From an uncultured Oscillospiraceae bacterium (GTDB lineage Bacteria > Bacillota > Clostridia > Oscillospirales > Oscillospiraceae), in NCBI GenBank assembly GCA_964387095.1, contig CAYLVH010000001.1, positions 1,103 to 65,102 of the forward strand: DNA of 64,000 nt. The letters are read 5' to 3'. The position numbers were made by a program, and so were the translations under genes. The notes beneath the pieces were generated by a model, which saw only the letters and a list, made by a program, of their open reading frames with translations, did not search any database and had not been told where the DNA came from. Numbering within the stretch: position 1 is the stretch's first letter; the number at the start of each line of letters is the position of its first letter. Below are positions 15,519-63,888 of this stretch, piece after piece.

Positions 15519-15567
15519 AAACCGTCCTTTCTTCTGGATATCCAGAAATCTCAAAAAAGGACGGTTT
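15519..15567 (+). promoter_or_regulatory. second hairpin enclosing a 16-nt perfect palindrome; it sequesters the asnB Shine-Dalgarno sequence
   Basis: AAACCGTCCTT (15519-15529) pairs with AAGGACGGTTT (15557-15567). The inner palindrome is TTCTGGATATCCAGAA at 15532-15547. The only SD-like AAGGA lies within the 3' arm, and the ATG is at 15573. Confidence 0.5.
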
Positions 15568-15572
15568 TGATT

Positions 15573-47002: not shown

Positions 47003-47005
47003 GGG

Positions 47006-47953
47006 TCATCCTCCGATCGTATTCATTGTCCGGCCCGCTTCGCTGAGATGCTTGGCATCCAAAGCCCCGTGCATCTTCGGCTTCTCCAGAATCGCCGTCC
47101 GCAGCGTCTCCAGCAGCGCTTCGCCGTGCTTGCCCCGCACCCGAATCTCCTGGTTGGAATGGAGGCAGGGCTTCAAATTCCCCTCACTGGTCAGGCGCAG
47201 GCGGTTGCAGGTGGCGCAGAAGTGATTGCTCAGGGAGGAAATCAAGCCCACCTTCCCCTGTCCATCCGACAGCCGGTACAGCCGGGCAACGCTGCCCGTC
47301 TCAGCCTCCACCGGCACCAGCTCCGGCACCTGCTTCAACACCTCATCTCCAGGCAGGTAGGCGTCCTTCCCAAACAGTCCCCCCATGGGCATCAGCTCGA
47401 TGAAGCGAAGCTCAATGGGATGCTCCCGGGTCAGCTCCACAAAGGCTCTGATTTCATCGTCATTGAAGCCGCCAATGAGCACGGTGTTCACCTTCACCGG
47501 GGTCAAGCCCGCCCGGAAGGCCGCCCGGATCCCCCGGAGGGCATCCTCCAGATTTCCTCTGCCGGTGATATCATGATATTTGTCCGGGTCCATGGTATCC
47601 AGGCTGATATTGACCCGTTTCACGCCGGCCTCTTTCAGCCCTTCCGCATACTTCTCCAGCAGAATCCCATTGGTGGTCAGCGCCACCTCCTGGATTCCAG
47701 GCACCGCCGCCACCATGCGGCACAGCTCCACCACCCCCCGGCGCACCAGGGGCTCGCCGCCGGTGATGCGCACCTTGCGGATGCCCAGCTGAGCCGCCGC
47801 GGTGACAATCTCTGTAATTTCCTCGAAAGAGAGAATATCCGCATGGGATTTCTGGCAGACGCCATCCGGCATACAGTAACGGCAGCGGAGATTGCATAGG
47901 TCTGTAACCGAAACCCGCAAGTAGCTGATCTCTCTCTGATAATGATCTTTCAT
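47006..47953 (-). CDS. moaA: GTP 3',8-cyclase MoaA (radical SAM)
   Basis: ORF track 47006..47980; the likely start is ATG 47953 (MKDHYQREISYLRVSVTDLCNLRCRYCMP). The C-terminal Fe-S motif CATCNRLRLTSEG is present. Confidence 0.92.
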   Translation of the reverse strand: MKDHYQREISYLRVSVTDLCNLRCRYCMPDGVCQKSHADILSFEEITEIVTAAAQLGIRKVRITGGEPLVRRGVVELCRMVAAVPGIQEVALTTNGILLEKYAEGLKEAGVKRVNISLDTMDPDKYHDITGRGNLEDALRGIRAAFRAGLTPVKVNTVLIGGFNDDEIRAFVELTREHPIELRFIELMPMGGLFGKDAYLPGDEVLKQVPELVPVEAETGSVARLYRLSDGQGKVGLISSLSNHFCATCNRLRLTSEGNLKPCLHSNQEIRVRGKHGEALLETLRTAILEKPKMHGALDAKHLSEAGRTMNTIGG

Positions 47954-47966
47954 GTTGTTTCCTTTA

Positions 47967-48992
47967 TTAATACCGTCCAAAGGTACAGTTGGGCCAGTGG
48001 CAGTCCCGGCAGCCCTGGCACAGGCCGCCTGCCCCCAGGCAACGCAGCTCTGCCCTGGTAAATCTCACCCCGGTAAACACCTGGGGCAACACCACATCCA
48101 GCATCGTGATCTTAGAGTGAATGGCGGCGCCGGGCACCCCCAGGAAGGTAATATTCCCCAGATAAGCCACCATGAACATATTCCCCGGCTGAGCGGGCAC
48201 GCCCTGAGTAATGATTTCCGCGCCGGTGCGCTGAATGGCCGTGGCAGTCAGATCATCGGGGTCCACACTCATGCCCCCGGTCATGATGATGAGCTTGGCC
48301 CCCCGTCTCTTCCACTTCTCAATGGCGCCGGACAGCATATCCAGGTTGTCGTCGCAGAAAATCGTGCCCAGGATGTCCGCATGATAAGCGGAAACCTTCG
48401 CCCGCACCACCGGCTCAAACTTATCCGGGATCCGGCTGGAAAAGACCTCGCTGCCAGTGACAATCAGTCCCACAGGCAGATTCTGGCGATAGGGGATCAG
48501 CTCCATCAGGGGACGCTCCGCCTTCGCGTTCAGCTCCTCCGCCTTTCGTATTTGGCTTTCCAGGCAGACAAGGGGGACAATGCGCTCCCCCGCCAGCTTC
48601 GTCCCCGCCTGGACAGGATAGTGGTCAGGCAGGGTGGTAATGGTGATGTCTCCAATCTGGTTGATGGCGTCCAACAGGGGCTTATTCACCCGAAACATGC
48701 CGTCCTCCCTGGCCGCCAAGGTCATTCTGCCCTCATTGGGGCCGGTATATCCGGCGTTTTCCATGGAACAGAGCGCAGCCAGACGCACAGCCGCATCCTC
48801 CTCATGGATTTCCCCAGCTGTTTCCTCCCAGATATAGATATACTTCTTGCCCAGGTCCAGCAGGTGAGGCACGTCCTCCCTGCTGATCACATGGCCGCGC
48901 TGAAAGGCTCGGCCCTTAAATCCCTCCCGGACCTCTGTAATATCATGGCAAAGGGTCAATCCCACCGCGTCTTCAGTTCTCACCTTTTTCAT
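47967..48992 (-). CDS. molybdopterin-binding (MoCF_biosynth domain) protein with Cys-rich C-terminus
   Basis: 341 aa with a MoeA-domain-III-like segment (IMTGGMSVDPDDLT) and the C-terminal CLGAGGLCQGCRDCHWPNC. Confidence 0.7.
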   Translation of the reverse strand: MKKVRTEDAVGLTLCHDITEVREGFKGRAFQRGHVISREDVPHLLDLGKKYIYIWEETAGEIHEEDAAVRLAALCSMENAGYTGPNEGRMTLAAREDGMFRVNKPLLDAINQIGDITITTLPDHYPVQAGTKLAGERIVPLVCLESQIRKAEELNAKAERPLMELIPYRQNLPVGLIVTGSEVFSSRIPDKFEPVVRAKVSAYHADILGTIFCDDNLDMLSGAIEKWKRRGAKLIIMTGGMSVDPDDLTATAIQRTGAEIITQGVPAQPGNMFMVAYLGNITFLGVPGAAIHSKITMLDVVLPQVFTGVRFTRAELRCLGAGGLCQGCRDCHWPNCTFGRY

Positions 48993-49008
48993 GGAATCTT
49001 CTCCTTAT

Positions 49009-50229
49009 TCAGGGGATCAGATATGCATGCAGCCGGGTGCCAGCGGGCAGACTGGGGCTGCCGCCGGGGATTTCCGCCAGCAGGTTGCAGCCAATCAGGC
49101 TGTGCAGCACGCCATTGCCTTGTCCCTGCTCCACCAGCATCCGGGCGGTGCCATCGGTCAAATCCAGCGTCCCCCGGATCAGCCGGGTTCTGGGGCTTTT
49201 TTTTGGAAAGCCCTCCTTCAGGGTCACTGTCAGCGCCGTCAGCATGGGCTCCTTCAGCCCTTGCAGCTTGCGGACCACCGGCAGGACCACCGCATAAAAA
49301 TTCGTCAGCGCGGAGGCCGGGTTGCCAGAGAGACCACAGATCAGCTTGCCTGCCCGAATCCCATAGGCGCTAGCTCCCCCGGGCTTCAGCTTCAAGGCAC
49401 GGATCAGCAGCTCCGCCCCGGCCCGCGTCATTGCCTCCGGGGTGAAATCGTAATCCCCCACGGAGACCCCTCCAGTGGTCAGCACCAGATCACAGGTGTT
49501 CAGGGCCTCATCCATTGCCGCCGCAATGGCGCCAGGGTCGTCGCCGGGGGCGCCGCATACTACGGGCTTGCAGCCCATATGCCGCAAGGCGGCAAAGAAG
49601 GTATATTGGTTGGTGTTGACAATCTTCCCTCCGGTCAGGGCCTCCCCGGCCTCCACCAGCTCGCTGCCGGTGGTCAGGATTCCCACCGTGGGGACTCCAT
49701 AGCAGAGAGGTTCCACAATCCCCTGGGCCGCCAAGGTGCCCAGCAGGGCGCTGTCAATGACCGTGCCCCTTTCCGCCATCAGCTGGCCCTTCCCCACGTC
49801 CTCCCCCCGGGGGACAATGTTCTCTCCGGGCTTGGACGGCCTGAAAATCGTCACCGTCTCCTGGGTGAAGGCGGTCTCCTCATACTTTGCAATGGCATCC
49901 GCACCCGGAGGAACCGGCGCCCCGGTGAGAATCTTTGTGGCTGTGCCAGAGGAGACCGCCTGCGTCCACATGGACCCTGCCGGTACCTCTTCCAAAATAC
50001 GCAGCGTCACAGGATTCTCCCGGCTGGCGCCCAGGGTGTCCGCCGCCCGGAAGGCATAGCCATCATAGGGGGAGCGGTCGAAGGGCGGCACATCCCCACC
50101 GGCAAACACGTCCTCCGCCAGAATGCGGCCCGCCGCTTGGAGCAGCGGCACCCGCTCCAGCCTTGTAATGGGCGCAACCTGCTCCATCAGGAGCTTTCTC
50201 GCCTCCTTATATTCCAAACCAGTCTGCAT
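49009..50229 (-). CDS. moeA: molybdopterin molybdotransferase MoeA
   Basis: 406 aa, SPYDGYAFRAAD...ILTTGSELV...LTTGGVSVGDYDF. AGGAGGAA lies upstream. Confidence 0.9.
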   Translation of the reverse strand: MQTGLEYKEARKLLMEQVAPITRLERVPLLQAAGRILAEDVFAGGDVPPFDRSPYDGYAFRAADTLGASRENPVTLRILEEVPAGSMWTQAVSSGTATKILTGAPVPPGADAIAKYEETAFTQETVTIFRPSKPGENIVPRGEDVGKGQLMAERGTVIDSALLGTLAAQGIVEPLCYGVPTVGILTTGSELVEAGEALTGGKIVNTNQYTFFAALRHMGCKPVVCGAPGDDPGAIAAAMDEALNTCDLVLTTGGVSVGDYDFTPEAMTRAGAELLIRALKLKPGGASAYGIRAGKLICGLSGNPASALTNFYAVVLPVVRKLQGLKEPMLTALTVTLKEGFPKKSPRTRLIRGTLDLTDGTARMLVEQGQGNGVLHSLIGCNLLAEIPGGSPSLPAGTRLHAYLIP

Positions 50230-50488: not shown

Positions 50489-51391
50489 TCAATATTCCTT
50501 CTTCAGGCAGTGGCGGGTAATCCCCAGAATTTCACGGGCCTCATCCGGGGTGGCAACCTCCCGGCCAGCCAGCTTGGTCAGCCGGACAGCCCGTTCCACC
50601 AGCCGGACATTGGTTGCGATAATCTTCTTGCCATCGGGGGTCTTGCCGAAGAGGATGTTGTCCTCCAGGCCCACCCGCAGGCCATCGCAGCCCAGGGCCA
50701 AGCCAGTCAGCATCATGGGCATGTGAGCCTTGCCAATGCCGGAAACAGACCAGGTAGCGCCGGCGGGCAGCTTGTCCACCAGGAATGCCAGGTTGCCGGG
50801 AGTGCCGGGCATCGCGCCGCCCACACCCATGATAAACTGGATGTGGGGAGGCTGGGGAATGTTATACTTCTTCACATAGTAGTTGACGGAATCGATATGG
50901 CCGGTGTCAAACACCTCAAATTCCGGCTTCACCCCGGTGCGGACCACCTCTGCCGCCAGCTTGTTCAGGAATCGGGGGGAGTTCTCAAAGATATAGCTGT
51001 TCGCCCAATTGATGGTGCCCGGATCAAAGGAGCACATTTCCGGCTTCAGCGCGTCCAGATGCTGTAGGCGCTTGTAATCCTCATACTCACCGCCGGAGGT
51101 GGTGAGATTGATCACAGGATCCAGGCCAGCCTCGGCGCAATACTTCCGGGCCAGCTCCACCGTCTCGGTGAACTTCTCCAGGGACATGGACTTGTAGTTG
51201 ACCTTCAACTCGCCGTCAACCACCTTGTCCTCACGGACATGGATGTGGACCACCGCAGCCCCCGCCTTGGTGACCGCCACGATGTCCCGGGCGATCTCCT
51301 CCGGGGTCAGGGGCACAGAGGGAGCCTGGACCTTGGTGGTGCCTGCGCCGCAGAGGCAGCATGAGATGATAACTTTATTGGTCTTAGACAT
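50489..51391 (-). CDS. BKACE-family beta-keto acid cleavage enzyme (DUF849; Kce / triacetate-lyase type)
   Basis: 300 aa, MSKTNKVIISCCLCGAGTTK...VVHIHVRED (HxH zinc site)...GLRVGLEDN, the 3-keto-5-aminohexanoate cleavage enzyme fold family. Confidence 0.8.
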   Translation of the reverse strand: MSKTNKVIISCCLCGAGTTKVQAPSVPLTPEEIARDIVAVTKAGAAVVHIHVREDKVVDGELKVNYKSMSLEKFTETVELARKYCAEAGLDPVINLTTSGGEYEDYKRLQHLDALKPEMCSFDPGTINWANSYIFENSPRFLNKLAAEVVRTGVKPEFEVFDTGHIDSVNYYVKKYNIPQPPHIQFIMGVGGAMPGTPGNLAFLVDKLPAGATWSVSGIGKAHMPMMLTGLALGCDGLRVGLEDNILFGKTPDGKKIIATNVRLVERAVRLTKLAGREVATPDEAREILGITRHCLKKEY

Positions 51392-51456: not shown

Positions 51457-52710
51457 TTATTCACACATTTCAATGACAGTTGCCTGGCCCATGCCGCCTG
51501 CGATGCACAGGGTGGCCAGGCCATATTTCAGCCCCCGGCGGCGCATTTCATACATCAGGGTAACCAGAATCCGGCAACCGGAGGAGCCAACGGGATGACC
51601 CAGGGCCACAGCGCCGCCGTTGACGTTGATGATATCCATCTGGTCCTCCCAGCCCAGCTGCTTGATGCAGCCCAGGGACTGGGCGGCAAAGGCCTCGTTC
51701 AGCTCGATGAGCTGAATATCGTCCATGGTCAGGCCGGCGTTTTTCAGCGCCTTGGGCACCGCGTAAACAGGGCCAAGTCCCATGGTCCGGGGATCGCAGC
51801 CAGCGGTGCCCATGCCGATGATCTTGCAGATGGGCTTCAGGCCCAGCTCCGCGGCCAACTCCTCCGCCATCATCAGGACAGCGGACGCTCCGTCGTTGCG
51901 GCCGGAGGAGGAGGCGGCGGTGACGGTCCCGGTCAGCTCACTGCTGTTCCAGATGCGGCCCTGTTCGTCATGGGTGATGTTGAAGCAGGGCTTCAGCTTT
52001 GCCATCTTCTCAGCGCTGGTATCGCGCTTGGGGAACTCGTCGGTGTCAAACACCAGGGGAGGCTTCTTCTTGCCCTGGGGGACAATCACCGGGACAATCT
52101 CCTCCTTAAAGCGGCCCGCGTCAATGGCGGCAATAGCCTTGCGCTGGGATTCCAGAGAGAAGGCGTCCTGCTCCTCCCGGGTGATGCCCAGGCTTTCCGC
52201 GATGTTCTCCGCAGTGGCCCCCATATTATAGCGGCCGTATATCTCCTGGGGCTGGGAGCGGAACTGACCCTCGGTGACGGCGTCTACGAACTCCGTATTG
52301 CCGGTGCCAACCCCCCAGCGGGCATTGCGGACATAGAACACGGCGTTGGACATGGACTCGGTGCCGCCTGCCAGGACGCAGTCGGACAAGCCGGTCATGA
52401 TCTGCATGGCGCCGTTGTGAACAGCGGTCATGGCGGAAGCGCACTGGCGCATAACGGTATGTGCGGAGGCAGAAGCGGGAATGCCCACCTTCAGAGCGGC
52501 TATCCGGGCGATATTGGGTTCGTCAGAGGTCTGCCGGCACTGGCCCATAATGACCTCATCGATCACAGCGGGGTCCACCTTGCTGCGATCCAGAATCCCC
52601 TGCATGACCGCGCAGGCCAGATCGTAGGCGGACAGGGGCCGCAAAGCGCCGCCGAATTTGCCCACAGCGGTGCGGCAGCCCTCAACAATTACAACATTTC
52701 TGGTTTCCAT
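51457..52710 (-). CDS. acetyl-CoA C-acetyltransferase (thiolase II-like)
   Basis: ORF track 51457..52734; the start is ATG 52710 (METRNVVIVEGCRTAVGKFGG). It has the active-site Cys region MRQCASAM, NVNGGAVALGHPVG and CIAGGMG. Confidence 0.88.
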   Translation of the reverse strand: METRNVVIVEGCRTAVGKFGGALRPLSAYDLACAVMQGILDRSKVDPAVIDEVIMGQCRQTSDEPNIARIAALKVGIPASASAHTVMRQCASAMTAVHNGAMQIMTGLSDCVLAGGTESMSNAVFYVRNARWGVGTGNTEFVDAVTEGQFRSQPQEIYGRYNMGATAENIAESLGITREEQDAFSLESQRKAIAAIDAGRFKEEIVPVIVPQGKKKPPLVFDTDEFPKRDTSAEKMAKLKPCFNITHDEQGRIWNSSELTGTVTAASSSGRNDGASAVLMMAEELAAELGLKPICKIIGMGTAGCDPRTMGLGPVYAVPKALKNAGLTMDDIQLIELNEAFAAQSLGCIKQLGWEDQMDIINVNGGAVALGHPVGSSGCRILVTLMYEMRRRGLKYGLATLCIAGGMGQATVIEMCE

Positions 52711-52803
52711 GTGATGAAATCCATCCTTTCCCATTGAGATTCCGTTTTCATCAATTTCCTTTGCAGGGGCAACTACCCTGTAAAGAGATGTCAGTCATAA
52801 TCT

Positions 52804-52840: not shown

Positions 52841-53710
52841 TTAGGCCTGTTCCAGGTAGGTGATGCCCACATAATGGTCATGGTCGGTGCGCTCACCAGT
52901 ATAGACCACGGGCTTGAAACCAGGATACGTGATTTCCACCGTCCAGGACTTGCCCTTGGGCAGGTCCTCAAACTCATAATCCCCTGCCCAATTGGTTTCC
53001 GTCTCATACATGGTGCCGCACTCTTCACAGGTAATCTTGACCTTGGCCCCAATGCAGACCTCTTCCAGCTCCTTGGGATAGGCAACGGTGCCGGCCAGGA
53101 ACGTGGAGGGGATGTTCAGATGGACCACGCTGGAGCCTTCGTCGCCCAGACACTCCAGCTGAGTGACCTTATTGGCGGCGATCAGCTTGGAAATCTCACT
53201 GTCGGGATCCGCCAGGTCGCCAAAGACCAGGGCCTGGTTGGGACATGCCTCCACGCAGCGGGGCTCAAAGCCGGGATAGTCAGGATCGTCTAAAAGCTCC
53301 GCGCACATGGTACACTTCTGGGGGATCTGCTCCTCCTCATTCCAGAACACGGCACCAACGGGACATGCATCCACAATCTGCTTCTGACCCTTGGACTTCT
53401 CCGGGTCGATGATGACAATGCCATCCGGGCGCTTATAAACCGCGCCGTCCTTGGCGACCGCCATGCAGGCGGGGTGATCGCAATGGGAGCAGGGCGTGGG
53501 GACGGTGGCCGTCTTGATGCGGCGCTCATTGTCTCCCCGCTCCCACTCAATAATATTCATCCAATACTGGTCCAGTTCGGGCTGAGACTTTGTCAGCGCG
53601 GAATCCCAGCCGCAATGCTCATCCTTGCAGGCCATAAAACATGCATAGCAAGCCATGCACCGCGCGGAATTGATGGCGATGCCGGGCTTCTTCATGGGTT
53701 TTTTCATCAT
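52841..53710 (-). CDS. 4Fe-4S subunit (beta-1) of a pyrogallol-transhydroxylase-like molybdoenzyme, with C-terminal Ig/carboxypeptidase-regulatory-like domain
   Basis: 289 aa with the Cys groups CMACYACFMAC, CSHCDHPAC, CPVGAVFWNEEEQIPQKCTMCAELLDD and CVEACP, and a C-terminal beta-rich domain (GAKVKITCEE...YEFEDLPKGKSWTVE). Confidence 0.8.
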   Translation of the reverse strand: MMKKPMKKPGIAINSARCMACYACFMACKDEHCGWDSALTKSQPELDQYWMNIIEWERGDNERRIKTATVPTPCSHCDHPACMAVAKDGAVYKRPDGIVIIDPEKSKGQKQIVDACPVGAVFWNEEEQIPQKCTMCAELLDDPDYPGFEPRCVEACPNQALVFGDLADPDSEISKLIAANKVTQLECLGDEGSSVVHLNIPSTFLAGTVAYPKELEEVCIGAKVKITCEECGTMYETETNWAGDYEFEDLPKGKSWTVEITYPGFKPVVYTGERTDHDHYVGITYLEQA

Positions 53711-53725
53711 AGTTACATTCCCTCC

Positions 53726-56440
53726 TTAGAGTCCGTTCTCGCCCCAGAGCAGGTCAGCCTGGGCAGAGGTGCGAATCGGGCGTCCGATTTCCAGCTGCTG
53801 CTTGTCAACAGCATCCAGAATGTGCTCGAAGCCTTGGCCATAGTTGGGATCAGGCTCGCACTTTTCTATATCAATATTGCAGCTGTACGGAGCCATAGCG
53901 GGAACATACTCACCAATCAGGCGCCCGGGGGTCAGCAGGTTGATACTGCCGCCCTTATCCCAGCTCTTATACTCACCGTACTGAATGGGATTATAAATGC
54001 CGGAGGAGGTATACGCATGGATGGTTTCAGGGTTCACACGATAGGTTACACGGGCAACCATCAGGCAGCTGCCCCGGTCATTGAATAGGCGGACAACGTC
54101 ACCGTCCTTGATGCCCTTCATCTCCGCGATCTTGTGGTTAATATGACAGACCAGGTAGGGGTTGCCATTGATAATGACACGGTTCTTGGGGATCTCCCAC
54201 AGCCACTTGGCGTGCTGATTATAATGGGTGTGATAATCGAAGCGGGGATGGGGGGAGATCAGGCCGAAGGGATACTTATCTGCGGACAGGGACTTGAAGC
54301 CCTCCCAGGAATCCTGATACTGGGGGATGGGACGGCGGGCTTCGTCATCCGGCGCCCAGTAGGTGATGGACTCAGAGACAAACTCGAACTTGCCCGAGAA
54401 GGTGCCCAGCATGCACTCCTCCTGGAACGGCTTGTGGTTCATGGTGTCGCAGGGGCGGTTCTCAGCAAACCACTGGAAGCCGGGATACCGGTCCCAATTC
54501 TCATACAGGCCGGTCTTAGGATCCTTATTCTCCTCCTTATAGGAGACAGGCGGGATGTAATAACCCTTCTTCTTGAAGTCCTCCCAGGAAATGTGCTTGG
54601 GCAGGTCGGAGAACTGCCAGAAGCGCTTTGCCCACTGCTCCTCATCCCGGCCTTCGGTGAAGCGCTCGCCCCAGCCCAGACGCGCCGCCACCTGGGAGAA
54701 GATCCAGAAGTCAGAGCGGGAATCCCACATTGGCTCAATGGCCTTATCCTGGTAGACAATGATCTGCCAGGAGTTGCCGGTCTGGGAGTGGGAGCAATAA
54801 CCGCCGTTGCCGGAGTTGCCCACTTCACCGATGTCTATGCGCTCCAGGTTGGAGCAGGCAGGCAGGATCACATCCGCGTGACGGGTCTCGGGAGTCATAT
54901 AGATGTCCTGGTTGATGACAAATTCCAGCTCCGGGCTCTTATACATCTTCACCCACTTATTGGTGTCCAGCATGGTGCCCAAGAAGGAACCGCCGTAACG
55001 CCAGAAGCAGTGAACCTTGTTATAGCCGGGCGCGGGATAGACATGGCGGGTAAACTCCAGGTCCACACCGCCGCCGCAGAAGCCCTCGCCGTACCACTCA
55101 TAGTGGCCGTCGAGAATCGCGTCAGGCAAATTGGGACGATAGAGGACCTGCTCAACCGGGTTCACCGGCACATCGTCACAGATGGGAGCGCCAGCGATGG
55201 AGCTAAGGGGATCGGAATAGCCGCCGAACCAGAAGTTATAGTTCATGGGGCCACCGCAGGCGGGGGACCAGAAGGCGCGGCCGGGCTTGCCCATGCCCTG
55301 CATGGCAAAGAGCAGGGTCATCAGGCGGGCATACTCAGTGCCGTTGGAATGACGGCAGGCGCCGCCGAAGCCGCCGCGCATGCCGGAACCGCCGGTGGTG
55401 ACGGTTTTCGCCCAGCGGCGGGCGATGGCCTTGATATCCATGGCGGGAACCAGGGACAGTTCTTCTGCCCACTTGGGCGTCTTTGGCGTGCCGTCCGGGC
55501 CCAGGCCCAGGATGTGGTTCTTAAACTCCTCAAAGCGGTGGCCATGCTGTGCCACATACTCTTTATCGTACAGATCCTCGGTGATCCACACATAGGCAAT
55601 GGCTTCCAGGATGGCAGCGTCGGTGCCCATCCGGGGGCCGATCCACTTGTCGGCATGCTTCACAGAGGTATAGTTGTTGAAGGGGTCGATATAGATGAAT
55701 TCAATGCCCATCTCCTTCATCCACCAGCGCCACAGGGCAGACTCCTGGGCGGAGTAGCCGCCCCGGGTGGTATCCGGGTCCGTGGACCAGCAGATGATGG
55801 TTTCCGTATTCTGCATGGCCATTTCCAGCATATCATAGGGCTCCGGACCGCCCAGGCGCCAATAGTAGCCGTAGGAGTGGGGGGTGCCCCAGTGGAAACC
55901 CTCCCAGGAGTCCGGGTTATCCGCGACGCGGGTATACCCCATCATGGAGAAGAAGCGCTTAAACAGGGAGATCTTGTAGCCCACCAGGCCCCAGGAATGG
56001 TGGGAGGAGGTACAGGCGGTAATGGTCTCCTTGCCATAGGTCTTATGCAGGCGCTTGATCTCACGGGCCACCAGGCTCAGCGCCTCGTCCCAGGTAGCCC
56101 GGCGATAGCCGGACTTGCCCCGGTTTTCCGTGTTGCGGTTCTTACCGTCGGGGGTCTCCACGAAGTCCTCCCGAATCATGGGGTACTTCAGGCGGTCATA
56201 TGCGTAGGTCTTATCCCGCTCGCAGTAGCCCAACAGGGACATGGTGGTCTTGCGCTGGGGGGTGTACTCCTTGCCCCGGGCCTTGATGACCCAGCCGGCA
56301 GGATCGTCGTCCGTCAGGACAATGGGGCGAACGCGGCGAATGACACCGTCAATGGTATGTAGGGTCATGGGGCCGCCGACGCACACACTGTGGGTGATAC
56401 GTTCTCTCTTGCTATCGGAACGCCTGGCTATTTTATCCAT
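53726..56440 (-). CDS. molybdopterin (bis-MGD) oxidoreductase large subunit alpha-1, pyrogallol hydroxytransferase-like, cytoplasmic
   Basis: 904 aa with no twin-arginine signal and no N-terminal Fe-S Cys motif. The blocks CTSSHHSWG, DSWEGFHWG, WSTDPDTT, GTPKTPKWAEE, GGACRHSNG and GMGKPG match my recollection of the Pelobacter transhydroxylase family. Confidence 0.8.
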   Translation of the reverse strand: MDKIARRSDSKRERITHSVCVGGPMTLHTIDGVIRRVRPIVLTDDDPAGWVIKARGKEYTPQRKTTMSLLGYCERDKTYAYDRLKYPMIREDFVETPDGKNRNTENRGKSGYRRATWDEALSLVAREIKRLHKTYGKETITACTSSHHSWGLVGYKISLFKRFFSMMGYTRVADNPDSWEGFHWGTPHSYGYYWRLGGPEPYDMLEMAMQNTETIICWSTDPDTTRGGYSAQESALWRWWMKEMGIEFIYIDPFNNYTSVKHADKWIGPRMGTDAAILEAIAYVWITEDLYDKEYVAQHGHRFEEFKNHILGLGPDGTPKTPKWAEELSLVPAMDIKAIARRWAKTVTTGGSGMRGGFGGACRHSNGTEYARLMTLLFAMQGMGKPGRAFWSPACGGPMNYNFWFGGYSDPLSSIAGAPICDDVPVNPVEQVLYRPNLPDAILDGHYEWYGEGFCGGGVDLEFTRHVYPAPGYNKVHCFWRYGGSFLGTMLDTNKWVKMYKSPELEFVINQDIYMTPETRHADVILPACSNLERIDIGEVGNSGNGGYCSHSQTGNSWQIIVYQDKAIEPMWDSRSDFWIFSQVAARLGWGERFTEGRDEEQWAKRFWQFSDLPKHISWEDFKKKGYYIPPVSYKEENKDPKTGLYENWDRYPGFQWFAENRPCDTMNHKPFQEECMLGTFSGKFEFVSESITYWAPDDEARRPIPQYQDSWEGFKSLSADKYPFGLISPHPRFDYHTHYNQHAKWLWEIPKNRVIINGNPYLVCHINHKIAEMKGIKDGDVVRLFNDRGSCLMVARVTYRVNPETIHAYTSSGIYNPIQYGEYKSWDKGGSINLLTPGRLIGEYVPAMAPYSCNIDIEKCEPDPNYGQGFEHILDAVDKQQLEIGRPIRTSAQADLLWGENGL

Positions 56441-56455
56441 ATTGCGTGTTCCTCC

Positions 56456-56977
56456 TTAATCCACTTCAATCATCTGACGGGCATACTCGGACCGGGGATC
56501 AATCTCCACCATATTGCCCACATATTTGCCGTCCTTGCGCTCAAAGCAGCGCATATCAAAGTCCTCAATGACGGGAATCCAGAACACACGGCCGTCAGGT
56601 CCCTGATAGTGCTTGCCCAGGTGGTACTGATGCAGCAGCAGATCCTGGGTGCCGCCAGGGACATCGAAGGTCTTCCGGGCCTCGGCATAGTGCAAATTCA
56701 GGAAGCTAGGATCCACAACCCCATAGCGCTCAAACCGCATAGGTCCGATGTTCTTCCAGTCATCCTTCAGGGAGTTAAAGGTCTCCACAATGACATCATA
56801 TACATCGGTGCCGGGCATGCCGCAGCCCTCAAAGCCCTCGTACCAGACACGGAAGGCGCACATATGCTCGCTGGGATGGTCCTTCAGGATGTCCTTCACA
56901 CGCTGAACCAGCTCGTCCTTCTCCATGGTGACAAGTCCCTCCGGAAGATGGAGCACATATTTTTTAACCAGATCCAT
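56456..56977 (-). CDS. hypothetical protein (173 aa), co-operonic with alpha-1
   Basis: GGAGGAAGA lies 5 nt before the ATG, and its stop is 15 nt before the alpha-1 start. No domain recognised. Confidence 0.65.
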   Translation of the reverse strand: MDLVKKYVLHLPEGLVTMEKDELVQRVKDILKDHPSEHMCAFRVWYEGFEGCGMPGTDVYDVIVETFNSLKDDWKNIGPMRFERYGVVDPSFLNLHYAEARKTFDVPGGTQDLLLHQYHLGKHYQGPDGRVFWIPVIEDFDMRCFERKDGKYVGNMVEIDPRSEYARQMIEVD

Positions 56978-56989
56978 CGTTCTTCCTCC

Positions 56990-57289
56990 TTATCGAATCA
57001 CATGGTTGCCCACCAGGTCGCCCAGTTCCTCGGTGCGACCGCTCTTGCGGGCATCGCCATAGCCATAGCTCCAGTCCCCCGGCAGGTCGTAAATGGCGAC
57101 GCACTTGGCCTCGCCAAGCGCAACGCCGGTGCCGTAATATTCCTTCTGCAGCTGCTCCTGAGCCAAGACCTTGGCCTCGTTCTCGTCTTCCGCACAAACA
57201 GTAGCTTTAGCGGTGGCGCAGAACACATATTTCGGCTCCGTGGGCTTTTCCAGCTGCTTTTTGGCAGCTTCAAAAACATACTTCTTCAT
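56990..57289 (-). CDS. hypothetical protein (99 aa)
   Basis: AGGAGG lies 10 nt before the ATG, with 12-nt and 15-nt gaps to its neighbours. Two other overlapping minus-strand frames in the track lack an RBS. Confidence 0.6.
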   Translation of the reverse strand: MKKYVFEAAKKQLEKPTEPKYVFCATAKATVCAEDENEAKVLAQEQLQKEYYGTGVALGEAKCVAIYDLPGDWSYGYGDARKSGRTEELGDLVGNHVIR

Positions 57290-57304
57290 TTGGACCCCGC
57301 CTCC

Positions 57305-57769
57305 TTAGTACATTCTGCTGTCCGGGATCTCACGGCCGTTGATCCAGGGATCATACTTGGCCATGAAGCTCTGATCGTCGCCCTCAAAGCCATACTGGCC
57401 CAGCTCAGAGGGATGGACCCACTTGAACTCGGAATAGATCTCACTCTTGGGTTCCGCCTGCCACTTGCGCACCGCCTCATAGTAACAGTGGTAATCGCAC
57501 TTGGTATGGGTATTGTGGGTGATATTGCCACACATGATATGTTCAACATAGCCGTCTTCCGGCTTCTTATGCCCAATGGTAATCAGCTTGCCGGCGGTCA
57601 CCTTCAGGCCCAGCTGCTCCCAGGCAAGGCGCTCCACCGCTTCCTGCTCCGTCTCACTGGTGTGGACGTGGTCATGGGGAAACTCCCAAACGCCGTTCTG
57701 GTTTTTTCCAATCAGCACATCCCCCGTGGGGCCCGCGTGGTGCTGGATCAAGGCAGAAATATAAATCAT
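57305..57769 (-). CDS. Nudix-fold protein with degenerate Nudix box (154 aa)
   Basis: GVWEFPHDHVHTSETEQEAVERLAWEQLGL aligns with the MutT box Gx5Ex7REUxEExGU, but REL.EE has become RLAWEQ and the leading Gly is Asp. The sequence is rich in His and Cys. Confidence 0.6.
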   Translation of the reverse strand: MIYISALIQHHAGPTGDVLIGKNQNGVWEFPHDHVHTSETEQEAVERLAWEQLGLKVTAGKLITIGHKKPEDGYVEHIMCGNITHNTHTKCDYHCYYEAVRKWQAEPKSEIYSEFKWVHPSELGQYGFEGDDQSFMAKYDPWINGREIPDSRMY

Positions 57770-57796
57770 ACAGGATACACCTTCTTCCCCATCCGA

Positions 57797-57994
57797 TTAC
57801 AGTGTGTATTGATGCTCTTCAAGCTGGTAGCCCTCCGCTTCCAGCTGAGCGCCAACCCGTTCACGGAACTGCCGGACAGTCTCCTGCCGCACGTCCCGGT
57901 CAATTCTCTTCACCTCTACGCCGTCTTCGCAGACGCTGGCCCACTCGGTAAAACCGCCGCGGGTACTCCGACATACAAATTTATAGGTTTTCAA
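57797..57994 (-). CDS. hypothetical protein (65 aa), TTG start
   Basis: AAGGAGGA lies 6 nt before TTG 57994, and the start is 3 nt from the upstream stop. No domain recognised. Confidence 0.55.
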   Translation of the reverse strand: MKTYKFVCRSTRGGFTEWASVCEDGVEVKRIDRDVRQETVRQFRERVGAQLEAEGYQLEEHQYTL

Positions 57995-57997
57995 GGT

Positions 57998-58462
57998 TTA
58001 TCCTCCTTCACTTTCACGATCTTTGGGTGCGTCCTTCCAGCTCATAAAGTCAGTATCCTCCGCAGGAAGCTGTCCCGTGGCGTCCAGATACGCGATAATG
58101 CCCTTTTCCGCCGCAACCATGACCCCCATGGGATTCATGTTCTGCTTCGGCGTGATCTCAAACAGCTGATCCGCCTGCTTCGCCAGGTTCTTCAGCATGG
58201 CGGTATGCTTTTCATTGATGGGCCAGGCCTTATATCTCCCCTCTTCCGCATCCAGGGGATGGATAAAGCACTGATACGCGTTCTGGGCAATGAACATATA
58301 CATAATCTCCATTTCCGACAGCACACCCACCATTTTCGCGCTATTTAGAGCAAGCATAATCTTGTCTCCATCCTTCGCCATAAGCCGGAGGCGAACATCC
58401 CGGTCGTGGTTGGCCCGGTCCGTCCGCTTGCGGCTGTCTCCTGGTTTTCTCTTTTCACTCAT
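57998..58462 (-). CDS. hypothetical protein (up to 154 aa; start uncertain)
   Basis: It is the first ORF of the unit. ATG 58462 has a poor RBS, whereas the internal ATG 58357 (MLALNSAK...) follows AAGGATGGAG with 8-nt spacing. If the long form is used, the N-terminus is basic. Confidence 0.5.
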   Translation of the reverse strand: MSEKRKPGDSRKRTDRANHDRDVRLRLMAKDGDKIMLALNSAKMVGVLSEMEIMYMFIAQNAYQCFIHPLDAEEGRYKAWPINEKHTAMLKNLAKQADQLFEITPKQNMNPMGVMVAAEKGIIAYLDATGQLPAEDTDFMSWKDAPKDRESEGG

Positions 58463-58656: not shown

Positions 58657-58682
58657 TTGTCACAACCAATGGGTTGTGACAA
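58657..58682. promoter_or_regulatory. palindrome TTGTCACAACC-AATG-GGTTGTGACAA upstream of the first molybdoenzyme unit (copy A)
   Basis: It has perfect 11-bp arms preceded by T6. A 20-nt core, TGTCACAACCAATGGGTTGT, is identical to copy B at 63264-63283. Confidence 0.6.
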
Positions 58683-59547: not shown

Positions 59548-60360
59548 TTATTTTTCCAGGGGAATGTCCCCCAGGTTGGGACAGCTCTTGGTCTCCAGCT
59601 CCTCAAAGCTCCGGGGCTGAAAGCCCGAGGCCTGGATGGTGACTTTTGCCCTGGTCTCCAGCAGATCCTTGAACCAAAAATCACCGAAGTCATCCGTGGT
59701 GGTCTCCCTTGTGGTCCCATCAACCAGGGTGAGCGTGACCTTGGCCCCGATGATGACTTCCTCCTCCTCCGGATCATAGACCAGCCCCCCCAGGAAGCAG
59801 CCGGGAATATTCCGGTAATAGACCCGGGGCCTGGCGCCGTACTCCGGATGGAGCACCACCGCATCCTTGAGTAGGTCGGCCAGCTCCTCCTCATCGCCAA
59901 ATTTCATGGCGTCGGTGGGGCAGGCCTCCACACAGCGGGGCACCTTGGCGCCATGATCCAACAGGTGGGCACAGCCAGTGCACTTCTGTGGCAGGTTCAG
60001 CTCCTCATTCCAGAAGATCTTGCCATAGGAGCAGGCCTCCACCAGGCCTTTCTGCCCCAGGGCCTTCTCCGGGTCAATGACCACCAGGCCATCCGGGCGG
60101 CGATAGACGGCGCCATTCTCTGCGGCGGCCATGCAGGGCGCATCCTCGCAGTGGTTGCACAGGGTGAGGATGTAATGGATCTTCACCTTGGGGATGGTGC
60201 CCCTGGGGTGATCGGTGACCTTGCACCAGAACTGACCCGTGGCGGGTTGGGGCGCCGCATAGGGCCGCCAATCGTTTTCACAATGCTCATCCTTGCAGGA
60301 GAGCTGACAGTTGTAGCAGCCGGAACACCGGGCCACATCAATGACAAACACCTTAGACAT
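59548..60360 (-). CDS. 4Fe-4S subunit (beta-2) of a second pyrogallol-transhydroxylase-like enzyme
   Basis: 270 aa, MSKVFVIDVARCSGCYNCQLSCKDEH, CNHCEDAPC, CSYGKIFWNEELNLPQKCTGCAHLLD, CVEACP, PRVYYRNIP, then an Ig-like tail (GAKVTLTLVDG...FGDFWFKDL). Confidence 0.85.
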   Translation of the reverse strand: MSKVFVIDVARCSGCYNCQLSCKDEHCENDWRPYAAPQPATGQFWCKVTDHPRGTIPKVKIHYILTLCNHCEDAPCMAAAENGAVYRRPDGLVVIDPEKALGQKGLVEACSYGKIFWNEELNLPQKCTGCAHLLDHGAKVPRCVEACPTDAMKFGDEEELADLLKDAVVLHPEYGARPRVYYRNIPGCFLGGLVYDPEEEEVIIGAKVTLTLVDGTTRETTTDDFGDFWFKDLLETRAKVTIQASGFQPRSFEELETKSCPNLGDIPLEK

Positions 60361-60363
60361 TGC

Positions 60364-63186
60364 TCAGATCTCCTTTCCAGGCACATGGGGCTGTCTGGAG
60401 CCCAACCAGACCCCTGCCTTTTCCTTCTGGCAGCGGACGCCGTCGGTGGGATCCTCATCCTGCTCCTCATCCACCAGCCAGCCGGCCAGGCAGACCCCGG
60501 CGTTGGGATCCGTCTTCCGGTTCCAGGCCTGGGCATACTTGGTGGACCATTCCTGATACTCTTCCTCCGTCACCTTCTGGCACTCCACCAGGAAGCCGGA
60601 AACCGCCATGCCGGTGGAGTTTTTGGAGGTCATAGAGGTGGGGGTGATGCAGTTGATGCAGCCGCCCCGGTCCAGCCAGCCGGGAATAATGGGGTCCAGG
60701 CGGGCACCGTGATCCACATAGACCACACCAGGGATCAGCCGCTCCGTGACATAGGCCGCGCAGAGTACAATGCCCCGCTCGTTGAAAATTTTGACGATAT
60801 CGTGGTGCTGAATCCCCCGCTCCTTCGCGGTGATGGGGTTGATCCACATGGGTTCGTACTGATAGCCGTCCCAGGCCCGGATCTTCATGGTTTCAACCTC
60901 CCGGTTCCAGATGATATCATCGCACTGGGCGTGCATTCTCCAGCGACCGTGGTTGGACATGCAAAGCAGGGGATATTTCTTGGCCCGCTCTGAGGAGAGC
61001 CGCTCGTCATGGCTCTCGCTCTTCTCGATCCAGTGGGGCACAGGGGGGCGTTCCGGGTCGTCGGGCATGTACTTCTCAATATCCGTGGAGGAATACTCCA
61101 GCAGACCGGTGGGGGTGGTCAGGGGGTGGTTTTGGGGATCCACATAGAAGTTATACAGGCCGGCAGGAATCTCCCGGGCATTCTCCTTGCAGGGCACCAC
61201 AAAGATCTTCCGCCGCTGGAACTCCTCCCAGCTCATATAATCCTCACAGCCAGAGGCGGCGTAGAAGAACCGCACCCGGTCCTCCTCGGTCAGCCCGTTG
61301 CCGGTGTAAGCCCGGACATACTCCGGACCCAGCTTCTCCGCCACCTTGACGCAGACGTCAAAGTCGGTCATGGACTCCCCGATGGGCGGGCAGCAGGGGC
61401 CGGTCAGATACACGGACTGGAACACACCAGAGCTCAGGTCGTTGCACAGGTCGCTCATCTCATGCTTGGTGGAAACGGGTAGGATCAGGTCAGCAAAATA
61501 GCAGTCGTTTTCCATCCAGGGATGCTGGGCGATGACGGTTTCAATGGAGGGATCCCGGTAGGCCTCAGTGAACAGGTTTCCGTTGTTCCAGCAGGTCACG
61601 TTGCAGGGGGAGTCCGTCCAGATCATATGGACCCGACTCAAGCCCGGCCTGGGGTAAACAATCTTGTTAAACTGATAGATGTTGGTGGGCTGGCGGTAGT
61701 TGTTCTTGTCCGGCTGCTGAGAGGAGGAGAAGCAGTGGAGGCCGTACCACTCCGCATGGCCCTCCACAATGGCGCGATGTACCATGCAGCGGGGAATAAA
61801 CTGCTTGGGGGCAGGCAGCTTCTTAAACAGCTCTACCAGCTCCGGGGCCTTCTCCTTCTGGTAATCGTTCAGGTCATAGCGGCGCATGTCAAGGGTGTCC
61901 GGCAGGTCCCCGTCCACCGCCCGGAGGCAGTCGCAGATCTGAGGCACCTTGGGAGCGAAGTCCCCCTGATAGGGTACCGGGAAATCCTTTGCCCACATAT
62001 TCCACTCAATCATCTTCCCCTGGTGGACGCCGGGACGGCCCAGGCCCTGCATCCCCAGCAGCATGACCTCCAAACGGGCAGGCTCCGTGGCATATGGCCC
62101 CCGGATATAGCATCCGCCGTTGCCGTGGAGGATGGAGGTGGTCTTCTTCGCCCAGCGGCGGGCCAGGGCCTTGATGGTCCAGGGCTTTACGCCGCACTTC
62201 TCACTGGCCCACTTGGGGGTCTTGGGGACGCCGTCCTCCTCCCCCATGACGTAGGCCACAAACTTGTCAAAGCCATAGGTGTGGGAGGCGATATACTCCT
62301 TGTCGTAGGTCTCCTCCGTCAGCCAGATGTAAGCAATGGCCAGCTGCAAGGCCGCGTCCGTATTGGGCAGAATGGGAATCCACTTGTCCGCATGGACCGC
62401 CGCGCCATAGTTCAGGTCGGGACAGATATAGATGCTATCAATCCCCAGGTCAGTAAACCAGTAGCACAGACGGGAGGGCATGTGGGAAACCACCCCCAGG
62501 GGGGTGGTCTCCGGATCGCAGCCCCAGAAAAGGAGCATATCCGTGTTCTTTGCGATGTCCGGGTACAGGTTGGCCGTGGGGGCCATCTCCCCCACAGGCT
62601 CCATGCCCCAGACGTGCTTGGCCCCCCAATACCAGCCCTCCCAGGAGTCCATGTTCCTCATCTGGAGGGTATAGCCCCCCATCAGGGCCAGCAGGCGGTT
62701 GGGGCAGCCGTGGCTGGGGGCCACCCGCTTGCCTTCGCCGTGCATATCGCTTTCGCAGAGCACCGCCTCGGGGCCGTAGGTCTCCTTCATCCTCCGCAGC
62801 TCGTCCGCGCAGATCCGGGCCGCCTCATCCCAGGAGATCCGGACATATTTGCTCTTCCCCCGGTTCTGGGGATTGCGCTCCCCCTTGGGGTCCCAGTCCA
62901 CCCGCTTTAAGGGATATTTCACCCGGTTTGGGGAATAGACCCGGCTCTTATAGCCCAGGCCCAGGGGGGTGATCGTCACCCGGTCCGGGGGCACAAAGGT
63001 CTGCCCCCTGGCCTCGATCTTCCAGGGGTGGCAGTTGGCGTCTGTATACTCTTTATCGTAGAAGTAGGGGCGAATGCGGGTGATCCTCCCCTCATTGGAA
63101 TCCACCATGCAAGGGCCACCGCTCTCCGGGCCCATGAGACTAAAGGACACTACGTTTTGCTGATCTGGTGTAAACTTGTCAGACAT
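60364..63186 (-). CDS. molybdopterin oxidoreductase large subunit alpha-2, pyrogallol hydroxytransferase-like, cytoplasmic
   Basis: Only 940 aa of the 1157-aa track ORF are plausible: ATG 63186 (MSDKFTPDQQ) follows AGGGGGA. The blocks HPWKIEARGQTFVPP, DSWEGWYWG, FWGCDPETT, GVPKTPKWASE and GMQGLGRPG are present. There is no Tat signal, and it is about 45% identical to alpha-1 by eye. Confidence 0.85.
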   Translation of the reverse strand: MSDKFTPDQQNVVSFSLMGPESGGPCMVDSNEGRITRIRPYFYDKEYTDANCHPWKIEARGQTFVPPDRVTITPLGLGYKSRVYSPNRVKYPLKRVDWDPKGERNPQNRGKSKYVRISWDEAARICADELRRMKETYGPEAVLCESDMHGEGKRVAPSHGCPNRLLALMGGYTLQMRNMDSWEGWYWGAKHVWGMEPVGEMAPTANLYPDIAKNTDMLLFWGCDPETTPLGVVSHMPSRLCYWFTDLGIDSIYICPDLNYGAAVHADKWIPILPNTDAALQLAIAYIWLTEETYDKEYIASHTYGFDKFVAYVMGEEDGVPKTPKWASEKCGVKPWTIKALARRWAKKTTSILHGNGGCYIRGPYATEPARLEVMLLGMQGLGRPGVHQGKMIEWNMWAKDFPVPYQGDFAPKVPQICDCLRAVDGDLPDTLDMRRYDLNDYQKEKAPELVELFKKLPAPKQFIPRCMVHRAIVEGHAEWYGLHCFSSSQQPDKNNYRQPTNIYQFNKIVYPRPGLSRVHMIWTDSPCNVTCWNNGNLFTEAYRDPSIETVIAQHPWMENDCYFADLILPVSTKHEMSDLCNDLSSGVFQSVYLTGPCCPPIGESMTDFDVCVKVAEKLGPEYVRAYTGNGLTEEDRVRFFYAASGCEDYMSWEEFQRRKIFVVPCKENAREIPAGLYNFYVDPQNHPLTTPTGLLEYSSTDIEKYMPDDPERPPVPHWIEKSESHDERLSSERAKKYPLLCMSNHGRWRMHAQCDDIIWNREVETMKIRAWDGYQYEPMWINPITAKERGIQHHDIVKIFNERGIVLCAAYVTERLIPGVVYVDHGARLDPIIPGWLDRGGCINCITPTSMTSKNSTGMAVSGFLVECQKVTEEEYQEWSTKYAQAWNRKTDPNAGVCLAGWLVDEEQDEDPTDGVRCQKEKAGVWLGSRQPHVPGKEI

Positions 63187-63263: not shown

Positions 63264-63286
63264 TGTCACAACCAATGGGTTGTAAC
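63264..63286. promoter_or_regulatory. palindrome copy B: TGTCACAACC-AATG-GGTTGTAAC
   Basis: It has the same T-run prefix (TTTTTTC) and the same 20-nt core as copy A, with one arm position changed (G to A). It lies in the divergent region between alpha-2 and the thioesterase-mobB pair. Confidence 0.6.
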
Positions 63287-63435: not shown

Positions 63436-63468
63436 GATTTTAGATTGCAACAAAGGAGGCCGCCACTT

Positions 63469-63888
63469 ATGATTTCCGAAACCCTCATTGACGTCCGTTA
63501 CCCCGACTGTGACCGGATGGGCATTGTCCACCACGCCGTTTACCCCATCTGGTATGAGGCCGCCCGCATGGACTTCTTCCAGAAGATGGGCTTCTCCTAC
63601 TCCGATATGAACAACCTTGGCATTAACCCGCCCCTGGTGGCCCTGGATTTGCGGTACAACACCCCCGCCACCTACCCCGGTCAGGTCTCTATCAAAACCA
63701 AAATAAAGTCCTACGCCCCCAAGAAGCTGGAGCTGGTCTATGAAGCCTGGTATCAGGGAAAGCTTTGCGGCACAGCCCGTTCCTTCCACATCTGGACCGG
63801 CCCGGACATGAAGAGCCTGGACATGCAGGCCACACACCCGGAGGTCTATGAGAAGATCCGGGCCGCCTGGGAAGGGGAAGAAGCATGA
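63469..63888 (+). CDS. YbgC/4HBT-type acyl-CoA thioesterase
   Basis: ORF track 63445..63888; ATG 63469 follows AAAGGAGG. VRYPDCDRMGIVHHAVYPIWYEAARMDFF is the 4HBT-I signature, including the catalytic Asp. Confidence 0.8.
   Translation: MISETLIDVRYPDCDRMGIVHHAVYPIWYEAARMDFFQKMGFSYSDMNNLGINPPLVALDLRYNTPATYPGQVSIKTKIKSYAPKKLELVYEAWYQGKLCGTARSFHIWTGPDMKSLDMQATHPEVYEKIRAAWEGEEA

Follow-up and report, generated by a model that had tools for sequence, protein, structure and literature searches.

The five small open reading frames (ORFs) that occupy positions 56456-58462 on the minus strand of a 64,000-nucleotide stretch of DNA from an uncultured Oscillospiraceae bacterium (contig CAYLVH010000001.1 of assembly GCA_964387095.1; the whole stretch is referred to as the window) lead directly into the genes of alpha-1/beta-1, a molybdoenzyme resembling pyrogallol-phloroglucinol transhydroxylase, and are tentatively interpreted here as a private assembly and maturation module of this enzyme, possibly substituting for the absent TorD-type chaperone. 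The evidence is drawn from the distribution of the genes across related loci, from the predicted folds of their products, and from a C-terminal tail of the alpha subunit. In gut, rumen, and peat, pyrogallol-phloroglucinol transhydroxylase is the gateway through which gallate and phenols derived from tannins are broken down anaerobically.

Organization and distribution of the five genes

The five minus-strand genes lie head to tail and run into alpha-1, with sizes, coordinates, and gaps that a first-pass annotation of the window had given exactly. ORF1 (57998-58462; 154 aa, 17.5 kDa), which starts with ATG, is the first gene of the operon, and it is followed by ORF2 (57797-57994; 65 aa), with a TTG start and a Shine-Dalgarno (SD) sequence overlapping the ORF1 stop codon, ORF3 (57305-57769; 154 aa), with a Nudix fold of the MutT/NUDIX_4-like type, ORF4 (56990-57289; 99 aa), which belongs to an orphan family, and ORF5 (56456-56977; 173 aa, 20.3 kDa), the last ORF before alpha-1. 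The intergenic gaps from ORF1 to alpha-1 are, in order, 3, 27, 15, 12, and 15 nt. The sequence AAGGAGG is located on or directly after the preceding TAA in ORF2, ORF4, ORF5, alpha-1, and beta-1; the earlier claim of an AGGAGG-type ribosome-binding site in all ORFs but the first is therefore correct for ORF2, ORF4, and ORF5 and incorrect for ORF3, whose SD sequence is GAAGGTG, and the ORF1 site is weak, as had been said.

All five ORFs are coding and under purifying selection: in every ORF, the substitutions per site measured against 43-62 orthologous loci amount to 0.47-0.57 at codon position 3 and to 0.14-0.32 at positions 1 and 2, and the same ORFs are also called by independent gene callers. 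ORF1 had been proposed with a length of either 154 or about 119 aa; the long form is the real one, since 62 homologues all have R13, H19, and D22, residues that the alternative start would leave out, and the short form is discarded. The seven genes from ORF1 to beta-1 (53710-58462, minus strand) share one reading frame with a single TAA between each pair, and this common frame accounts for a 652-aa plus-strand ORF (56390-58348) that was rejected as an antisense artefact. The common frame itself is probably coincidental, and no read-through meaning is given to it because the arrangement is not conserved elsewhere; in fact, a polyprotein or read-through product across ORF1 to beta-1 was dismissed on loci L083, L085, and L089, in which the gaps are not multiples of three. 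The five proteins are soluble and mildly acidic, have no transmembrane segments, and contain 1-3 Cys residues each; no cofactor or metal-cluster motifs were found in them, and paralogy among them was rejected by BLASTP and hhalign (probabilities <1%).

The distribution of these genes was followed by scanning 185,579 species genomes with alpha-1, which gave 80 loci in which the ORFs were then sought by tblastn and hidden Markov models. Nearly all these loci belong to metagenome-assembled genomes (MAGs) of gut and rumen Oscillospiraceae and Clostridiales, with the addition of the isolate Sporobacter termitidis DSM 10068, a cultivable organism. All five ORFs are found upstream of alpha-1 when its identity is at least 82%, and only ORF1 and ORF5 at 77-81%; the same two persist at 66-69% in L053 (Sporobacter), L054, and L058. 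Two loci, L055 and L056, have ORF5 without ORF1, five others (L050, L051, L057, L072, and L073) have none of the five ORFs, and intermediate sets are represented by ORF1-ORF2-ORF5 (L081) and ORF1-ORF3-ORF5 (L031). As judged from this gene content, ORF1 and ORF5 are the core set and ORF2-ORF4 a later modular insertion restricted to the gut/rumen Oscillospiraceae clade; co-occurrence with the transhydroxylase-like genes, which the first-pass annotation had put forward as a check, is wide for ORF1 and ORF5 and clade-restricted for ORF2-ORF4.

The association with alpha-1 is strict. In every contig examined from the ORF5 or ORF1 side alpha-1 is immediately downstream, ORF5 is always the gene directly before it, and searches started from alpha-1, ORF5, or ORF1 alike located ORF1 and ORF5 always by alpha-1 orthologues, never by alpha-2, and nowhere else. 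The proposed specificity to alpha-1/beta-1 is thus borne out whichever gene starts the search, and so is the observation that the second transhydroxylase-like unit, alpha-2/beta-2, has no such leader genes. Many loci contain ORF1-ORF5 with the alpha and beta genes but lack the thiolase and BKACE genes present further downstream in the window; therefore, the association is with the enzyme and not with the pathway. Alpha-1 loci with 83-94% identity are also filed under Bacteroidota MAGs (L003, L030, L044, and L049, labelled Barnesiella, Bacteroidaceae, and Alloprevotella), and these labels are probably due to binning contamination and not to transfer.

The modular, come-and-go gene content between ORF1 and ORF5 could also be produced by an unrelated hitch-hiking cassette, mobile, phage-derived, or toxin-antitoxin-like, co-transcribed with the enzyme by chance, and such an origin may find further ground in a metagenomic ORF4 copy fused to or interrupted by an HNH/RRXRR element and in the weak structural similarity of ORF1 to uncharacterised phage proteins. 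However, this explanation is hardly credible, since the genes are under purifying selection and keep their place directly before alpha-1 strictly even in distant genomes, there are no PHROG matches, and no integrase or repeats were seen.

Predicted folds, the alpha-1 tail, and the degenerate Nudix protein

The first-pass annotation had been unable to assign four of the five ORFs to a family. ORF1, ORF2, ORF4, and ORF5 are indeed orphans, without family matches in Pfam, NCBIfam, PHROGs, and PDB sequences, either singly or as profiles, and the remaining one, ORF3, was placed by the profile check among the Nudix proteins. In particular, searches of the PDB with alignments of the four orphans returned nothing under E = 0.2, and names such as PAH, MipZ, and XRN_N, which emerged from the Pfam, NCBIfam, and PHROGs scans and from scanning 65 ORF5 and 62 ORF1 homologues singly in Pfam, were discarded as sub-threshold noise. 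The earlier remark that none of the proteins looks like a TorD/DmsD-type chaperone is confirmed: there is no match to TorD/DmsD/NarJ (PF02613) or NapD at E<=1 in Pfam and NCBIfam for the five ORFs, nor for the 65 ORF5 and 62 ORF1 homologues, and none among the window ORFs scanned; AlphaFold2 (AF2) predicts a mixed alpha/beta fold for ORF1 and for ORF5, in contrast to TorD proteins, which are all-helical over about 200 aa, and no TorD-like PDB chain was matched by the two models.

ORF5 belongs to a family of 182 homologues among 5.8 billion proteins, and a HMMER profile against 1.84 billion representatives gave 32 hits, consisting of fragments, split-gene halves, and one spurious PAS kinase. 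Its AF2 model is confident (predicted local distance difference test score, pLDDT, 93.4) and divides the protein into an N-terminal alpha/beta domain, which carries the conserved loop WYEGxxGxG, and a small C-terminal barrel that may be SH3/KOW-like. In Foldseek comparisons with the PDB, KOW and NdhS SH3-like barrels superpose on the C-terminal residues of ORF5 with a probability of 0.85-0.97 and a root-mean-square deviation of 2.2-3.5 A over 57-61 residues, with E-values >=0.17 and without sequence similarity, whereas the N-terminal domain and the whole fold have no match, the whole-protein TM-scores being <=0.25. In Sporobacter-type genomes ORF5 is split into an N-domain gene (about 80 aa) and a C-domain gene (about 65 aa), each with its own SD sequence, as in L053 (9481-9735 and 9765-9965) and also in L054, L055, and L058; in L056 it is fused, as in the window. 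A metal or active site made of H116, H119, H123, and C52 was considered and rejected, as only H116 is kept in the Sporobacter-type homologues.

The ORF1 family consists of 170 proteins and is found in most alpha-1 loci, Sporobacter included. Its AF2 model, weaker than that of ORF5, has an ordered alpha/beta core at residues 23-130 and disordered N- and C-terminal tails, which are nevertheless conserved, as seen from R13/H19/D22 and from the motif GQLPAEDxDFMxW; termini that are invariant yet disordered are expected of segments that fold on a partner. No whole-fold match was obtained for the ORF1 model with Foldseek in the PDB and among viral structures: an assignment as a sliding-clamp domain was rejected as weak noise (TM <=0.33), and among viral structures the weak similarity concerns only uncharacterised phage proteins. 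On these models, the predicted folds of ORF1 and ORF5 are without a solved relative, and the Foldseek check proposed earlier leaves only the C-terminal barrel of ORF5 resembling solved structures.

The two remaining orphans differ in their rate of change. ORF2, with a mean column identity of 79%, is better conserved than the other four and is confined to the clade with alpha-1 identity >=82%. The ORF4 family, in contrast, is fast-evolving and comprises about 55 proteins sharing the motifs EKPTEP and DWSYGYG. A search with concatenated ORF2 and ORF4 returned almost exclusively ORF4 relatives, and ORF2-sized genes seem to be under-called in public data. In the metagenomic protein P0329, an HNH/RRXRR nuclease sequence is joined to the first ~45 residues of an ORF4 homologue, the result of either a mobile element inserted in ORF4 or a chimeric assembly.

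Alpha-1 (53726-56440, minus strand; 904 aa) is an orthologue of the transhydroxylase large subunit and aligns with Pelobacter acidigallici 4v4c_A over residues 14-864, its full length, with 700 bits, while alpha-2 is more distant from the Pelobacter enzyme (451 bits). It contains the domains PF21423, PF00384, and PF01568, including an AhtL-like first domain, and keeps the SSHH, NPDSWEG, and FGGY motifs in the alignment to 4v4c_A. The residues that we take, from the alignment and the numbering of the structure, to be equivalent to the Mo ligand Ser175 and to Asp174, His144, and Tyr404 are kept; R153 and W354, in what is presumably the same numbering, are replaced by K and F, respectively. Beta-1 (52841-53710, minus strand; 289 aa) is an Fe-S subunit with Fer4_11 and a CarboxypepD_reg-like barrel. 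The pair looks like a true pyrogallol-phloroglucinol transhydroxylase, with the catalysis predicted from the sequence, and the conversion of pyrogallol to phloroglucinol with tetrahydroxybenzene as co-substrate is backed by context, because the thiolase and BKACE genes are in the same operon and the homologue in L057 lies beside pathway genes.

The alpha-1 chain carries a C-terminal tail (residues ~882-904; 53729-53797, minus strand) ending in RTSAQADLLWGENGL. Such a tail is present in all of the 14 sampled alpha subunits that have an ORF5 neighbour and in none of the five that lack it (14/14 and 0/5), and the ORF5-associated chains run 20-39 residues past the end point of the ORF5-less ones. 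The alignment with the Pelobacter chain (875 residues) stops only a few residues short of the C-terminus of that chain, which suggests that its large subunit is likewise without the tail.

The co-occurrence of the tail with ORF5 is also what could be expected if ORF5, ORF2, and perhaps ORF1, or all five proteins, were stable stoichiometric small subunits of a larger holoenzyme, with a structural, docking, or regulatory function; for example, an SH3-like peripheral subunit might give the Fe-S chain of the beta subunit, otherwise without function, a docking site for an electron or substrate partner. This alternative, doubtful on balance but nearly as probable as a maturation module, is in accordance with the AAGGAGG sites and the 12-15-nt coupling, equal to those of alpha-1/beta-1, with the slow evolution of ORF5 and ORF2 (~80-90% identity where ORF1 has ~60%), about as conserved as the enzymes of the operon, with the compact and confident ORF5 fold, whose C-terminal barrel is similar to small peripheral subunits and KOW modules including NdhS, and with the retention of both ORF5 halves when the gene is split. 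On the other hand, the Pelobacter enzyme was reportedly crystallised as alpha-beta only, a Nudix-fold protein would be unusual as a structural subunit, ORF1 is absent from L055 and L056 despite the presence of ORF5, and the content of ORF2-ORF4 between ORF1 and ORF5 varies; such modular content fits dispensable helpers better than obligate structural subunits.

ORF3 is a match to PF00293 (33.2 bits against a cut-off of 21.1), falls slightly short of NUDIX_4 (34.6 bits against 35), and has MutT-type NCBIfam matches under their cut-offs. Its Nudix box is degenerate, with R-x-a-W-E-Q instead of R-E-U-x-E-E, so that the complete GX5EX7REUXEEXGU signature is lacking. The orthologues keep the equivalents of E44 and R52 in 44/44 cases and of E56 in 43/44, whereas the position of E53 is Glu in 0/44 (I, V, A, L, or T instead) and that of E57 in 1/44 (Q or T instead). 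ORF3 keeps, in common with the MutT/NUDIX_4 branch, which includes the non-catalytic C-terminal domain of MutY, the E-x7-R element and the first Glu of the EE pair; it differs in that the Glu next to Arg and the second member of the pair are replaced, in that it has a subfamily-specific His-rich insertion (EHIxCGNITHNTHTKCDYH), and in being encoded in a molybdoenzyme operon.

His77, His85, and His94 of ORF3, together with the conserved polar clusters of His, Glu, and Asp in ORF5, might indicate auxiliary pathway enzymes, engaged for instance in making or recycling the 1,2,3,5-tetrahydroxybenzene co-substrate, whose physiological source is an open question, or in decarboxylating gallate. This reading is improbable: the five proteins follow alpha-1 and not the pathway genes, they have no cofactor or metal-cluster motifs and few Cys residues, the ORF1 and ORF5 folds match no enzyme, ORF5 is separable into two small genes, and the conservation of its H119, H123, and C52 does not extend to the split or distant homologues. 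Among the three options that the first-pass annotation had offered, namely extra subunits, maturation factors, and auxiliary enzymes, the last is the least likely, due to the missing cofactor motifs and to the loss of the putative catalytic residues of ORF5.

A putative maturation module and its counterparts in known systems

According to the interpretation as a maturation module, the small, soluble, cofactor-free proteins would be co-produced with the enzyme from one regulated operon, from ORF1 to BKACE, and would have the enzyme itself as their target, with a part most probably in folding it and loading it with the molybdenum cofactor (Moco), the module thereby standing for a TorD/NarJ-type chaperone in a cytoplasmic enzyme devoid of a twin-arginine translocation (Tat) leader; no Tat signal was found in alpha-1. 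ORF5, the oldest and most constant member, would bind alpha at its C-terminal tail, in the way that NarJ recognises a terminal NarG peptide, ORF1 would be attached through its conserved disordered N- and C-terminal tails, and ORF2-ORF4 would be later add-ons; among these, ORF3 may be a binder, and not a hydrolase, of a "nucleoside diphosphate linked to X", for which the guanine-dinucleotide end of the molybdenum cofactor is the most plausible candidate. What we infer in this scheme is the physical binding to the enzyme, the chaperone-like role, and the ORF3 ligand. The scheme is favoured because of the modular gain and loss of the genes, the disordered but conserved tails of ORF1, and the parallel with the NarJ/NarG tail peptide, and also because an FmdE protein is found as a positional analogue and a non-hydrolytic Nudix protein would suit a cofactor linked through a nucleoside diphosphate.

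Several known systems help to define this proposal. TorD/DmsD/NarJ and NapD are, like the products of the five ORFs, cytoplasmic proteins of small size whose genes belong to the operon of a particular enzyme with Mo-bis(molybdopterin guanine dinucleotide) (Mo-bisMGD); NarJ binds the N-terminus of NarG and napD is located upstream of napA, and here it is the C-terminal tail of alpha that correlates with ORF5. Unlike those systems, the ORFs have no match to PF02613 or NapD and are predicted as alpha/beta folds with a putative SH3-like barrel, in contrast to the all-helical TorD and the ferredoxin fold of NapD; moreover, the set numbers five proteins where those systems have one, the peptide putatively targeted is at the C-terminus, and a Tat leader is missing from alpha-1. 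FmdE (PF02663), a small accessory protein encoded in operons of the Mo/W formylmethanofuran dehydrogenase, takes the corresponding place in L057, immediately before the alpha-1 homologue (4004-4579, 132 bits; a PF02663 domain and a treble-clef zinc finger). The five ORFs show no homology to it: they do not match the FmdE profile, and the treble-clef zinc finger is absent from them. In the same locus, genes for a cyclase, a short-chain dehydrogenase/reductase (SDR), a cupin, and a 3-hydroxyacyl-CoA dehydrogenase (3HCDH) precede FmdE and form a full phloroglucinol-pathway cluster. The Pelobacter transhydroxylase (AthL/BthL, PDB 4v4c) shares with alpha-1/beta-1 the Ser, Asp, His, and Tyr of the active site and the Fe-S and barrel architecture of the beta subunit; the solved enzyme is alpha-beta only, apparently ends without a C-terminal tail, and is not known to have accessory proteins.

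Some observations weigh against the maturation module. The Pelobacter enzyme is said to be active as a plain alpha-beta dimer and the alpha homologues of L050 and L051 are without any of the small ORFs; therefore, the five proteins are not universally required. The slow evolution of ORF5 and ORF2 and the perfect SD sites coupled to alpha-1 fit stoichiometric subunits equally well or better, and the correlation between the tail and ORF5 may trace to just one or two evolutionary events. Finally, the literature searched contained nothing on these ORFs, on the Sporobacter transhydroxylase, or on Nudix proteins with MGD, so that a precedent for the binding of MGD by ORF3 was not found in it.

Accessory proteins of molybdoenzymes are known, but the literature searched contains no description of these families and their predicted folds, of the layout with five genes, of the tail on alpha, or of the Nudix member with its degenerate box. 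In its broadest form, the proposal is that ORF5 and ORF1, joined by ORF2-ORF4 in gut/rumen Oscillospiraceae, constitute an unrecognised, TorD-unrelated maturation or holoenzyme system for cytoplasmic Mo-bisMGD enzymes, with new folds, a disabled Nudix protein handling the guanine-dinucleotide cofactor, and ORF5 clamping the alpha tail; that all these parts hold together is unlikely. At least four uncharacterised protein families are defined in any case, and a new use of the Nudix fold is possible. The practical interest is due to the fact that the transhydroxylase family is notoriously hard to produce heterologously, and a similar difficulty is reported in PMC11887054 for the related catechol dehydroxylases. 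If the ORFs are needed for assembly or are part of the holoenzyme, their co-expression could unlock recombinant production, and features of the enzyme such as the function of its Fe-S chain and its priming by the co-substrate could also find an explanation.

Regulation of the operon and neighbouring genes

A palindromic operator-like site, CACAACCCATTGGTTGTG (58661-58678, minus strand), is located in the 373-nt gap upstream of ORF1 and overlaps a promoter-like GTGACA-17-GAAAAT (58663-58635, minus strand). The palindrome ACAACCCATTGGTTGT occurs twice in the window, at 58661-58678 upstream of ORF1 and at 63267-63284 upstream of alpha-2, against an expectation of 0.06, and both copies adjoin a promoter-like site; in at least 14 related loci, Sporobacter among them, variants of ACAACC-N4-GGTTGT precede ORF1. 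The putative operator and promoter-like site would therefore place ORF1 at the head of an operator-controlled operon ending at BKACE. The two copies suggest a single regulator for both transhydroxylase-like units, and the ORF1-to-BKACE operon is probably co-regulated with alpha-2/beta-2/DUF6198. No riboswitch was found in the ORF1 leader.

The conserved operator raises the question of whether ORF1, possibly with ORF5, is itself the regulator or sensor of the operon acting at ACAACC-N4-GGTTGT. The position of ORF1 as first gene, its conserved basic N-terminal arm, the palindrome upstream of both ORF1 and alpha-2, and the fact that the surroundings of the operon in the window showed no further regulator gene are compatible with such a function, which is nonetheless very improbable: no helix-turn-helix, ribbon-helix-helix, or other DNA-binding domain was detected in ORF1 (Pfam and NCBIfam, with the 62 homologues scanned singly against Pfam), there is no structural match to regulators, the operator is also present in L051, which has neither ORF1 nor ORF5, and tight translational coupling into a highly expressed enzyme operon would be atypical of a regulator.

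Downstream of beta-1, the operon continues with a thiolase (51457-52734, minus strand) and ends with a BKACE-family enzyme similar to triacetate acetoacetate-lyase (50489-51391, minus strand), which match the triacetate end of the phloroglucinol pathway (PMC10470551). A Moco riboswitch (RF01055; 50313-50442, minus strand; 70.2 bits) is located between BKACE and MoeA, and the Moco-biosynthesis genes are therefore a separate cofactor-sensing unit directly downstream of the operon. This unit (45548-50229) encodes MoeA, a MoCF-domain protein, MoaA, MoaC, MoaB/Mog, and a MOSC protein; MobA was not found among the window ORFs scanned.

Upstream, alpha-2/beta-2 (59548-63186, minus strand) is found near alpha-1/beta-1 in many genomes, in either orientation and often with a DUF6198/YczE-like membrane protein, and this co-localisation suggests two transhydroxylase-type enzymes in one pathway. 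A 4HBT-family thioesterase (63445-63888, plus strand) adjoins the transhydroxylase region, and a member of the same family has a similar place by this region in the unrelated metagenomic contig L087 (3713-4126), beside major facilitator superfamily (MFS) transporter, cupin, and SDR genes. At a greater distance, the window contains two T-box leaders with 104-105 bits (9906-10156, minus strand, and 15229-15478, plus strand), the second of which is upstream of an asparagine synthase gene (15567-17153). It also encodes two old yellow enzyme (OYE)-type flavin and pyridine-nucleotide-disulphide oxidoreductases, similar to enoate/2,4-dienoyl-CoA reductases (709-2802 and 17922-19898, both plus strand), a further copy of which is found near the operon in L083; in gut bacteria, enzymes of the OYE type act on flavonoids and phenylpropanoids.

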